DNA of 20,000 bases from IMG/VR virus record IMGVR_UViG_3300005521_000001. One strand, 5' to 3'. The stretch comes from an uncultured virus (IMG/VR IMGVR_UViG_3300005521_000001) (taxonomy: Duplodnaviria; Heunggongvirae; Uroviricota; Caudoviricetes). This document shows, in pieces, positions 4,205-20,000 of the stretch; the first letter of the stretch is position 1; each line of letters opens with the position of its first letter. The notes under the pieces are model-generated. The model had not been told where the DNA came from and made no database searches. It saw only the letters and a list, made by a program, of their open reading frames with translations. The translations under genes and the position numbers were made by a program.

Positions 4205-4242
4205 GTCCTATACACCACACCTATATAAGGACTTCGGCCTAT
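4205..4242 (-). promoter_or_regulatory. Promoter of the vWA gene
   Basis: gtcctatacaccacacctatataa (4205-4228) is identical to 6564-6587; TATA 4220-4229. Confidence 0.8.
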
Positions 4243-6563: not shown

Positions 6564-6690
6564 GTCCTATACACCACACCTATATAACAGTTATTATAAT
6601 GTTATGTTTCATGTTGTCTGTCTGTCTCCTGTTTTTGGTGCGGGTATAGATAACCCTATACACCACTCCTATATAAGGATATTCCCTATA
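6564..6690 (-). promoter_or_regulatory. Tandem promoters upstream of MoxR (TATA 6579-6588 and 6668-6677)
   Basis: Two cctatacaccac-cctatataa units. 6668-6690 is identical to 11368-11390. Confidence 0.75.
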
Positions 6691-12933: not shown

Positions 12934-13266
12934 TCAAGCATGGTCTATTACTACTGTGACCGTGCCATGATTGTTGGAGATTACCATACCTGATAGACCA
13001 TTGAAAACCTTCCTACCTGCGGGATAATCGAATTGATAAAACCCTCCATTTTGGTTTTTCATTGTGATATAGGCTAATCCATTTGCCGGACCAACCTTAG
13101 CCGCAGTATCGGTGTCACCTATCATGAGTTCTAAATTGTCAGTCGGTGCGCTACCATGTGGTGCTATGTCAATTGTAATTCCAAAGATGATAGAACCGCC
13201 CTCGGCAGGGGCAAGCATAGCATCTCCGTTGTTTTCCATATCTAAAATCAAAGTAGTATCGCTCAT
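12934..13266 (-). CDS. Beta-rich hypothetical protein (110 aa)
   Basis: ORF track; TATA-like element at 13289-13298. Confidence 0.75.
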   Translation of the reverse strand: MSDTTLILDMENNGDAMLAPAEGGSIIFGITIDIAPHGSAPTDNLELMIGDTDTAAKVGPANGLAYITMKNQNGGFYQFDYPAGRKVFNGLSGMVISNNHGTVTVVIDHA

Positions 13267-13312: not shown

Positions 13313-13549
13313 TCACAGTTCTTGCCATTCACAAATCATTTCACCGTTAATCATCCAGATGAAATGGTTCTTGATTTCCGAATGAGCCATACAATATGCT
13401 TCAAACATATCCAAAGAGCGTCGGCAATCATAAACTGCTTCTTGTCTTTCGTAAATTTTTTCGCCGTATTCGATTACCCCGTAGTATCTAAAATATACAA
13501 AGGTGATTTCTGTTTTTTCTTCTTCCCATTGAGTTTCTGTTCCGCTCAT
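13313..13549 (-). CDS. Acidic hypothetical protein (78 aa)
   Basis: Leaderless ATG with TATA at 13569-13578. Confidence 0.75.
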   Translation of the reverse strand: MSGTETQWEEEKTEITFVYFRYYGVIEYGEKIYERQEAVYDCRRSLDMFEAYCMAHSEIKNHFIWMINGEMICEWQEL

Positions 13550-14825: not shown

Positions 14826-14965
14826 ATCCTTGCGTGGTGGTGCAAGTATATAATATGTAGGTAAAATGTATAGATTCATAAAGACTATATACTGTCAGTG
14901 TCACCCTTCCAGTGGATGCGCTCTAAAAAAAAGCGGCTCAACCAAAAACTTGCGCTCTGTCTATC

Positions 14966-18516: not shown

Positions 18517-18568
18517 CTTTGTTCGCCTCTAAACTATCCTATGCACCACTACTATATAAAGATGCCGT

Positions 18569-18757: not shown

Positions 18758-19032
18758 CTGCTCTCTATAATCTCAATGGTTTCCATCAAGGAAACAATTT
18801 TCATTCTTAATGTATGAACGGGGTAGCACCCTCTTTGACCGCCCCCGCAGTTATCGTAAGCCTTGACCAATTGGTTTAACGCTTTTCTCAGGTGTTTGGT
18901 GCATTGCTCAATATCCCTCGGCGTGGTGTGCATGATGCCTACCTCTCCGCATAGAGCGTCGAACTGATAACCCAGTTTAGCGGCTCGGTTCTTTTGTCCT
19001 ATGTTCTTTACTTCGTTTAATTTAGTCGCCAT
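18754..19032 (-). CDS. Hypothetical protein (92 aa)
   Basis: Leaderless ATG; TATA at 19053-19062. Confidence 0.75.
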   Translation of the reverse strand: MATKLNEVKNIGQKNRAAKLGYQFDALCGEVGIMHTTPRDIEQCTKHLRKALNQLVKAYDNCGGGQRGCYPVHTLRMKIVSLMETIEIIESR

Positions 19033-19062
19033 GTTTATTCCTACCTGTCACTACTATATAAG

Positions 19063-19311
19063 TTATTCGCCTATTGGTTTTACACCGTTTGACTCTTTCC
19101 ATTCTTCAAAATCAATGCCTTCATCGTCGCATTCTTCTTCAATGTTCTCATAACATCTTTTACACAATCCTTCAACCGACCATGCATCATTTACCAGAAA
19201 AATTACATTCTCGACAGAACCACACCACAGGCAGGTTTCTTCGCCTACTGTGTAGTCAATCGTTATTTCTGTCTCTTTAGGCTCTGTCAGGTTCTCTTCA
19301 TCTCTGCTCAT
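19063..19311 (-). CDS. Acidic Zn-finger protein (CLWC...CKRC)
   Basis: Start moved to ATG 19311; TATA at 19331-19340. Confidence 0.75.
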   Translation of the reverse strand: MSRDEENLTEPKETEITIDYTVGEETCLWCGSVENVIFLVNDAWSVEGLCKRCYENIEEECDDEGIDFEEWKESNGVKPIGE

Positions 19312-19361
19312 GTATCTCCATACTACCACTCCTATATAAGCATTTTGCCTACCGTTTTACC

Positions 19362-19542
19362 TATATAAACTTTTCGCAAACCTTATATACCCCCAAAATC
19401 TTTATATACCCCCATGTAGTAGCATGTATGAGAGCGGAGAACCAGAACCCCCTGAATCAGGCACGGGGGGAGATTGCTACTATACTTTTTAGGTATATAA
19501 ACTTTTCGCAAACCTTATATACCCTAAAAAACTTTATATACC
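19362..19542. repeat. 49-bp direct repeat (19362-19410 / 19494-19542), each copy with three BRE-TATA elements
   Basis: Identical 31-bp core tatataaacttttcgcaaaccttatataccc; 3 mismatches over 49 bp. Confidence 0.9.
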
Positions 19543-19873
19543 GTCAGTTATATGCTCAACATGTCCGGCCTGTTGGGAGGCGAGCGCACCCCTGCACCCG
19601 CCCCCCTGAGCCTGTGAATTGGATGACACCCACACAAGACCGTTCACTTGGCGGATTTTCACCGCCCCCGAAGGGAGAACCGTGCGCCTTGTATGGGCAT
19701 CTAAGAAGCGTGCCTTCATGCCCGTGCGTCGCAAGCAATCTTCAACGGATGCGAACCGTTGAACCCCCATACCCTCAAGGTAGCACCCTGATAACACAGT
19801 GGTGGGGGTGGCAATTGGTGTGGTGTCCAATTTTTACGCCTTGAAGTTCGCCCCTGTTAGGGGGGTCGCCTCT
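19526..19873 (-). ncRNA. Candidate structured ncRNA of ~340 nt, family not recognised
   Basis: Own TATA promoter (19894-19903) with no ATG at the start site; GC-rich; many helices whose G-U pairs work only on the minus strand; cUUCGg loop; 3' U-run. Confidence 0.6.
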
Positions 19874-19916
19874 AAACTATCCTATGCACCACCCCTATAT
19901 AAGCATGTCGCCTATA

Positions 19917-20000
19917 TCATGGGTATTTATAGCAATACCTGCACCTGTGGTTATTGCCTGTATCAATATCAGGGTGTTTGATAGCCCCTTCTTTATTGCT
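19917..20000 (-). CDS. 3' end of a truncated gene (...HPDIDTGNNHRCRYCYKYP*)
   Basis: Open frame to the window edge; stop lies just upstream of the next promoter. Confidence 0.5.
   Translation of the reverse strand, partial: SNKEGAIKHPDIDTGNNHRCRYCYKYP

Follow-up and report, generated by a model that had tools for sequence, protein, structure and literature searches.

The genes of the window analyzed here, a 20,000-nt stretch of DNA from an uncultured Caudoviricetes virus (IMG/VR IMGVR_UViG_3300005521_000001), include those for a family B DNA polymerase, for subunits of a clamp loader and for a MoxR/vWA pair. Each of the 15 best matches listed for the polymerase, out of 255 phage records, is a halovirus (22-24% identity), and the top named match of the clamp loader is from a Thermoplasmata archaeon (41%). 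Terminase, portal and capsid genes were found in a second record, G002, which shares 99.8% identity with the window across 15 kb, and all three sequencing runs containing most of the stretch are marine metagenomes, from which the window may come. A tailed virus with an archaeal-type PolB and clamp loader from a marine source agrees with the magrovirus gene set as given in excerpts of PMC5434244. Because the PolB, the clamp loader, the G002 terminase, portal and capsid genes and the marine runs fit those viruses, the window probably derives from a tailed, magrovirus-like virus with an archaeal host. Methylase-like genes lie side by side near the accessory region of relatives (L114 14086-14937 and 15041-15916; L112:8907-9833), and the product of L112:8907-9833 scores as a C-5 cytosine DNA methylase. 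Also in L114, positions 13085-13210 hold a cluster of short tandem-like direct repeats adjoining a 199-aa gene, possibly iterons or a genome-end/packaging site.

Near the end of the window, the minus strand carries the cassette laid out in the table below. Its TATA box was correctly placed by the initial annotation, as was the 27-bp identity between 19866-19892 and 18523-18549. No start codon lies behind this promoter; a T-run replaces the leaderless ATG of the protein-gene promoters, defining an RNA-promoter subtype, and we infer that transcription starts at 19873-19874. The L116 promoter is near-identical to that of the window, and the core of L116 begins 2-3 nt past the inferred start. In L114, a locus almost identical to the window, an ATG lies 22-24 nt downstream of 7/11 listed minus-strand TATA sites. 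The proposed contrast with the other minus-strand promoters stands insofar as the ATG is missing here, but the twin promoter (at 18559) likewise lacks one, so the contrast is not absolute. The sequence behind the promoter is the GC-rich island that had been described, with 58.8% GC for 19561-19873 against 40.3% for the whole window, and its folding z-score against 100 shuffles is -2.44 for the minus strand, a level reached by 1/100, compared with -1.40 for the plus strand, reached by 10/100. No sigma-70-like sites occur within 19000-20000. The gene after the cassette (19063-19329) has its own promoter at 19339, with a U-run and a promoter module in between, and no downstream ORF relies on the cassette, which does not have the riboswitch arrangement of an aptamer in a gene leader followed by an expression platform.

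Table. Features of the RNA cassette and its surroundings; two-sided changes are those among the three distinct core sequences.
Feature	Position	Strand	Remarks
Viral TATA promoter	19874..19915 (TATA 19894-19903)	-	spacing equal to that of 7 ATG-bearing promoters
Variable 5' extension, small hairpin at about 19851-19865	19841..19873	-	copies the first bases of the core 5' strand
Conserved RNA core, 134 nt	19707..19840	-	aligned in 3 distinct sequences (window, L112, L116)
P1	19836-40/19707-11	-	two-sided changes: none
P2, invariant 8-nt loop 19819-26	19827-32/19813-18	-	two-sided changes: 2
P3	19810-12/19712-14	-	two-sided changes: none
P4	19803-08/19764-69	-	two-sided changes: 2
P4b, triloop	19785-91/19775-81	-	two-sided changes: 2
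P5	19756-63/19741-48	-	two-sided changes: 2
P6	19732-37/19719-24	-	two-sided changes: 1
Variable 3' extension	19621..19706	-	long helix at about 19686-19701/19625-19640
Fixed trailer with 14-bp hairpin 19575-19606	19545..19620	-	trails the RNA, or the protein-gene stop codon in relatives
First U-run past the cassette (U6; U5 in L112)	19526..19531	-	
Repeated module, back-to-back and facing TATA boxes	19355..19545	.	not part of the RNA cassette
Twin of the RNA promoter, including the first 7 nt of the RNA	18523..18560	-	now precedes a protein ORF

A metagenome scan with the neighbouring promoter motif returned 20 loci, of which 7 span the slot occupied by the RNA, one (L102) matches a different module copy and the other 12 have no relation to the region. 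The RNA is present in 4/7 slot-spanning loci, L101 and L114 (at least 99.7% like the window), L112 and L116. In the other three, L100, L105 and L118, the same promoter position drives a gene for an 86-aa protein, identical in L100 and L105 and 88% alike in L118, which makes three different alleles for the RNA and two for the protein. In run X8 the slot holds 278 unlike letters, the length of the protein allele. Between the RNA alleles, only 19707-19840 can be aligned. The 86-aa protein belongs to no Pfam or PHROG family and matches only unnamed Atlas clusters, at 0.81-0.82; its L105 copy (L105:6140-6400) is a paralogue of a 78-aa protein of the window (13313-13549), with 31% identity over 67 aa (E 4e-08). 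On the minus strand of L105 and L118, a promoter retains the leaderless ATG minus its T and is followed by a hairpin like a tRNA T arm (L105:3867, L118:6208).

By this computational comparison, the RNA is an optional accessory gene, swapped slot-for-slot with a small protein gene. With its own promoter, no reading frame, no dependent gene and a protein gene as its replacement, the cassette is expected to supply an accessory product that acts in trans. Its neighbourhood consists of small, individually promoted, strain-variable genes, and such regions are the usual place of host-takeover and anti-defence genes. The twin promoter keeps the first 7 nt of the RNA and matches the L116 promoter across 36 nt, which suggests recombination between promoter repeats, and it is likely a trace of cassette shuffling. 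A similar arrangement exists in T4-type phages, where promoter and stem-loop repeats (PeSLs) flank non-essential genes and cassette swapping by recombination has been shown, according to the excerpted text of PMC2839356. Here, too, a repeated promoter and a stem-loop flank genes that differ between close relatives, and recombination of this type would explain both the RNA/protein exchange and the twin promoter. Excised mini-circles are a further mark of PeSL cassettes. In contrast to PeSLs, which carry sigma-70 promoters, the promoters here are archaeal TATA elements and the cargo is itself a structured RNA; recombination at this slot is inferred.

Folding of the three cores with RNAalifold on the minus strand gave a consensus of -51.2 kcal/mol with 43 pairs, none broken and 9 showing two-sided changes, which is covariation of the kind that the initial annotation proposed to look for in homologues. 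The predicted layout joins a three-way junction (P1, P2, P3) to a four-way junction (P3, P4, P5, P6), with loops that are invariant, a word that is weak here since the alignment holds only three distinct sequences, ~85% alike. A pair is kept in all 22 variable paired columns, and with three kissing pairs added between the loops of P5 and P6, a possible contact in the model, 138/138 cells are paired; none of 500 shuffles did as well and slid controls reached 35-47%. These counts of pairs and changes come from three related sequences and are not probabilities. Together they argue, at the level of sequence, for a real structured RNA fold. Contigs of the DNA run X5 show similar paired changes in P2, P4b and P5; they are L112-like and hence not independent. 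Variable columns are found at 11/50 unpaired and 22/86 paired positions of the three-core alignment. The loops and junctions thus vary no more than the stems, as expected if a partner reads them.

Energy is what the predicted P1 and P3, which close both junctions, rest on: in 3/3 isolated cores closing both junctions gains 4.8-6.3 kcal/mol over the local alternative, and P1 and P3 have pair probabilities of 0.86-1.0. In the whole window transcript, the probability falls to 0.01-0.02 for P1 and P3 and to about 0.3 for P4b, as the 5' extension, with its repeat of the P1 strand, competes for pairing. Local pair probability of P2 is 0.47-0.96. The single-sequence z-score of the isolated window core is just -1.3. 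We considered and dropped a second UUCG loop in P4b, where the base change is a compensatory partner within the 7-bp helix.

This fold changes the picture of the element. The initial annotation had drawn a single structured unit of ~340 nt closed by a long-range helix (19617-35/19818-32), whereas what is conserved is the 134-nt core; its flanks are exchangeable, and the trailer also occurs on mRNAs. The long-range helix has a pair probability of at most 0.002, is incompatible with a local hairpin bearing two compensatory changes, and lacks its partner strand in both homologues. A primary transcript of ~345 nt may still hold. Among the smaller helices of that model, those of 8, 7 and 5 bp are complementary as given, while the 6-bp helix 19695-19700/19718-19723, also complementary, has a probability of 0.0 and clashes with the covarying P6.

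The flanks of the core differ from allele to allele. The 5' extension is missing in L116 and replaced in L112 by a hairpin of ~70 nt (L112:4062-4132, minus strand), in which 18 unpaired nt separate two helices. A likeness between this L112 extension and the 5' part of the G002 unit at L243:6050 (p 0.02, uncorrected among 42 comparisons) is not significant and was set aside. In the window, the helix of the 3' extension is capped by a hairpin with the cUUCGg tetraloop at 19668-19673, present as annotated, and by a 7-nt-loop hairpin (19650-19666). L112 has no 3' extension, the main variant in run X5 lacks 19621-19704, and the L116 extension loosely resembles that of the window (local alignment p about 0.003-0.007, uncorrected, 42 comparisons). 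The cassette flanks may be shared modules.

The trailer with its long hairpin, in contrast, is retained in 5/5 aligned sequences, the hairpin being cut to about 9 bp in L116 and L118. The minus-strand bias claimed for the 14-bp hairpin is correct, with 14/14 pairs against 11/14 on the plus strand, but the hairpin is not specific to the RNA, since it follows the protein gene in relatives. The same applies to the U6 run proposed as the end of the RNA: it is present and plausible as an archaeal terminator, yet it follows the protein gene too and doubles as the A-run before a plus-strand TATA box (19533-19540). Because the trailer stays whether an RNA or a protein gene is present, the hairpin and U-run read, in the sequences compared, as a fixed end-piece for any gene occupying the slot. 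An 18-aa plus-strand ORF at 19561-19617 was rejected as a candidate gene, being frameshifted in L116 and L118. Beyond the U-run, the repeated module centres on an invariant G-string motif (19459-19472) and has three copies in the region (window 19355-19545; L114 10790-10960 and 11955-12130). Bases 5' of the G-string vary without compensation, and the motif could be a DNA site, serving as an origin or bound by a regulator, or could form the 5' ends of small RNAs. Plus-strand TATA promoters at 14885, 15620 and 19534 face short GC-rich hairpin stretches instead of genes and are conserved in relatives.

The RNA matched no recognised family, in line with the absence of SRP, RNase P, tRNA and hammerhead motifs noted initially. 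Searches of the window, L112 and L116 with the Rfam 15 covariance models (E up to 10) gave the element best scores of 12-18 bits, with E >1 and far below the gathering scores, and no hits in L116 or the L112 copy; the unmatched families include SRP, RNase P, riboswitches, self-cleaving ribozymes, GOLLD, ROOL and pRNA. By eye the plus strand recalls SRP RNA, a resemblance that we discarded, as Rfam support was absent and polarity favours the minus strand. ARAGORN found no tRNA genes in the window or in 10/10 loci, including L112 and L114. Copies of the core were not found in viral contigs, where 50 + 45 loci proved to be unrelated short matches (by blastn and context) and one further match lay in an unrelated gene, and blastn against phages and plasmids left the core unmatched. 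A genome scan gave at least 120 stretches; the 80 listed are all bacterial by title and were assumed to be chance matches. Across 12 sources, the core model R1 recovered no sequences besides its own 5 copies. No score exceeded 12 bits in a further 7 sources, and 7 whole records, among them that of halovirus HVTV-1, gave no matches; these sources are mostly fragments. In the open literature, we found no description of non-coding RNAs of magroviruses, and a term search of PMC11706807 and PMC10160649 did not return 'ncRNA' or 'non-coding'. In a catalogue of viral candidate RNAs (PMC10690425), the core motifs are absent from 4/6 supplementary files, and the remaining files could hold the family. 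We conclude that the core represents a new, small structured RNA family within a known broad kind, the virus-borne structured RNAs.

Two known junction RNAs resemble the core in part. Like tRNA, it has a four-way junction with two 7-nt-loop hairpins ordered as anticodon arm then T arm, and in 2/3 sequences the P5 loop fits an anticodon-loop pattern. Unlike tRNA, the core has no T-loop (3/3), D arm or CCA end, carries 4 nt between P6 and P3, and has an altered P5 loop size in L116. The phi29 prohead RNA is a junction RNA with two mutually complementary loops, essential and present in all close relatives. Complementary loops are shared by the core, but unlike the prohead RNA it is dispensable and has no Rfam match, and its neighbours are small accessory genes at a distance from those for packaging; as judged from the slot, the RNA is missing in 3/7 loci.

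The nearest kind to the core, though far larger, is GOLLD/ROOL. These RNAs of phages and prophages are, according to excerpts of PMC12286853, virus-borne, ornate and non-coding, non-essential and of unknown function, and form RNA-only cages via kissing loops; GOLLD, like the RNA here, has one conserved and one variable region. They differ from the RNA described here in size (over ~600 nt, with values of 659 nt and often >800 nt, against 134 nt for the core and ~345 nt for the transcript) and in often lying beside tRNA genes, of which there are none in the window or the 10 loci scanned; the RNA here also has no Rfam match and probably an archaeal host. Their precedent favours an oligomer or scaffold in which the P5 and P6 loops would pair between molecules, as a ring or cage, or the core would dock with the other cassette RNAs of the virus. 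Three to five P5/P6 loop pairs are possible in 3/3 sequences, one with a one-sided A-to-G change, and as the two hairpins are just 3 nt apart, pairing within one molecule may be hindered. Candidate docking partners are found in G002, where same-subtype promoters with no ATG drive two further GC-rich folded units of ~300 nt in the same sense as the RNA (L243:6050-6370 and L243:11715-12010), which have no Rfam match and no similarity to the 134-nt core. We regard this reading as unlikely, since the kissing pairs show no two-sided change, the core is far below GOLLD/ROOL size, the cassette is dispensable, unlike a packaging RNA, and duplex energies of the core loops with the G002 units are no better than those of shuffles in 3/4 tests (p 0.13, 0.28 and 0.33; one 0.04, uncorrected). 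Behind a fourth RNA-subtype promoter, at L242:10040-10150, lie about 90 nt in which the ATG is missing from its usual position, and the next promoter comes after them.

Riboswitch aptamers typically combine multi-way junctions with short, invariant linkers, and the core has both. A junction pocket could accordingly act as a sponge that soaks up a nucleotide signal or metabolite during infection, and as neither an expression platform nor an ORF lies downstream, binding would act in trans. We consider this rather unlikely as well, given that no riboswitch family matched even at E up to 10 and that the neighbouring genes offer no clue to a ligand. The tertiary-looking compact core, its invariant junction bases and its freely varying flanks could also suit a ribozyme that cleaves itself or acts in trans to trim a partner RNA. 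This is improbable: no Rfam ribozyme model matched, the supported fold has no nested double pseudoknot, there is no adjoining tRNA, and in a stand-alone transcript with nothing downstream to process, self-cleavage would have little purpose.

It is quite improbable that the loops instead base-pair with host or viral RNA or DNA as a guide or antisense RNA. The invariant P2 loop would be the obvious candidate, and 10 nt of its region match the spacer that follows the TATA box in each of two viral promoters (window 4212-4221 and 6571-6580); a 7-nt word from the 3' strand of the core also recurs in three neighbouring repeat modules. However, unpaired stretches are at most 10 nt, such matches in about 56 kb of viral DNA are near chance (0.3-5 expected; about 0.3 for the 10-nt P2 match), both promoter matches are copies of one repeat within an untranscribed spacer, and the 7-nt word is paired in P1/P3. 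A role in cis at a replication origin, in which the transcript would prime DNA synthesis at the AT-rich repeated module, draws on the fact that the transcript ends in a G-run trailer and enters AT-rich repeated modules with the G-string. This is very improbable for the core, because a protein gene replaces it in 3/7 loci while the module stays, so that only the trailer or module could serve.

That the region is not an RNA gene on this strand at all, being a 98-aa minus-strand ORF, a 138-aa plus-strand ORF, a plus-strand RNA or a neutral GC-rich insert, is largely refuted: both ORFs are open in the window and the plus-strand TATA box at 19533-19540 points into the region, but the 98-aa frame stops early in 2/2 homologues (L112, L116), run X5 disrupts the 138-aa frame by an 84-to-2-nt replacement and single-base losses, ORFs of the region have no PHROG matches, the plus-strand consensus is poorer (-42.6 kcal/mol, 36 pairs, 2 broken), its 8 two-sided changes being those of any mirror image, and the minus strand has the lower core z-score in 3/3 sequences. 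The homologues thus show a broken 98-aa TTG frame together with covariation, not a conserved frame without it. The covariation, the strand-specific G-U pairs, the interrupted ORF and the empty Rfam search bear out the central proposal of the initial annotation, a virus-encoded structured RNA on the minus strand. One of the 22 runs listed is recorded as RNA and gives a single 152-nt contig identical to 19712-19863, a weak hint of expression, as its strand and level are unreadable, DNA is possibly present and the DNA run X4 gave a similar short contig; the gap outside 19712-19863 in the RNA run carries no evidential weight.

We therefore favour a stand-alone accessory viral RNA that acts in trans by its shape, as a decoy for a host protein, and give this reading a probability of roughly 0.4. 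The loops vary as little as the stems and are too short to guide, so that recognition of the RNA's shape by a protein is the simplest interpretation; no complement of the core beyond chance occurs in about 56 kb of viral sequence. On the view that this is an RNA gene, which is very probable, host TBP, TFB and RNA polymerase would start at ~19873 and read to the U-run at ~19531, yielding a transcript of ~345 nt. The flanking hairpins and trailer would guard the RNA ends, and the cassette would move by PeSL-like recombination between repeated promoters and fixed trailers, which we consider probable. The compact core, with its invariant exposed loops and junctions, may then sequester a host RNA-binding protein, candidate targets being nucleases or sensors of host defence and factors of RNA decay or translation; this step, to which architecture and gene context point, is tentative. 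A decoy useful in only some host strains would explain why the cassette is present in some relatives and absent from others. Small, separately transcribed viral RNAs that bind a host defence protein by shape exist in the adenovirus VA RNA and the EBV EBERs; the analogy to these eukaryotic systems is functional, and we claim no kinship in sequence or fold.

The core is a new small RNA fold, defined by covariation, from a virus of probably uncultured marine archaea, and at 134 nt with three natural variants it makes synthesis, probing and structure solution directly feasible. The one-for-one exchange with a protein gene suggests that RNAs serve these viruses as accessory effectors. We speculate, with more doubt than attaches to the decoy itself, that in marine archaeal viruses interchangeable folded RNAs share promoter slots with small accessory proteins, and that the 134-nt RNA is an RNA-only anti-defence or host-takeover factor, a decoy or signal sponge. 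If true, this would be a role for which we found no prior description for an archaeal virus RNA in the literature searched. Finding a host partner would reveal what RNA-level conflict these archaea are engaged in and may help to account for other orphan viral RNAs.
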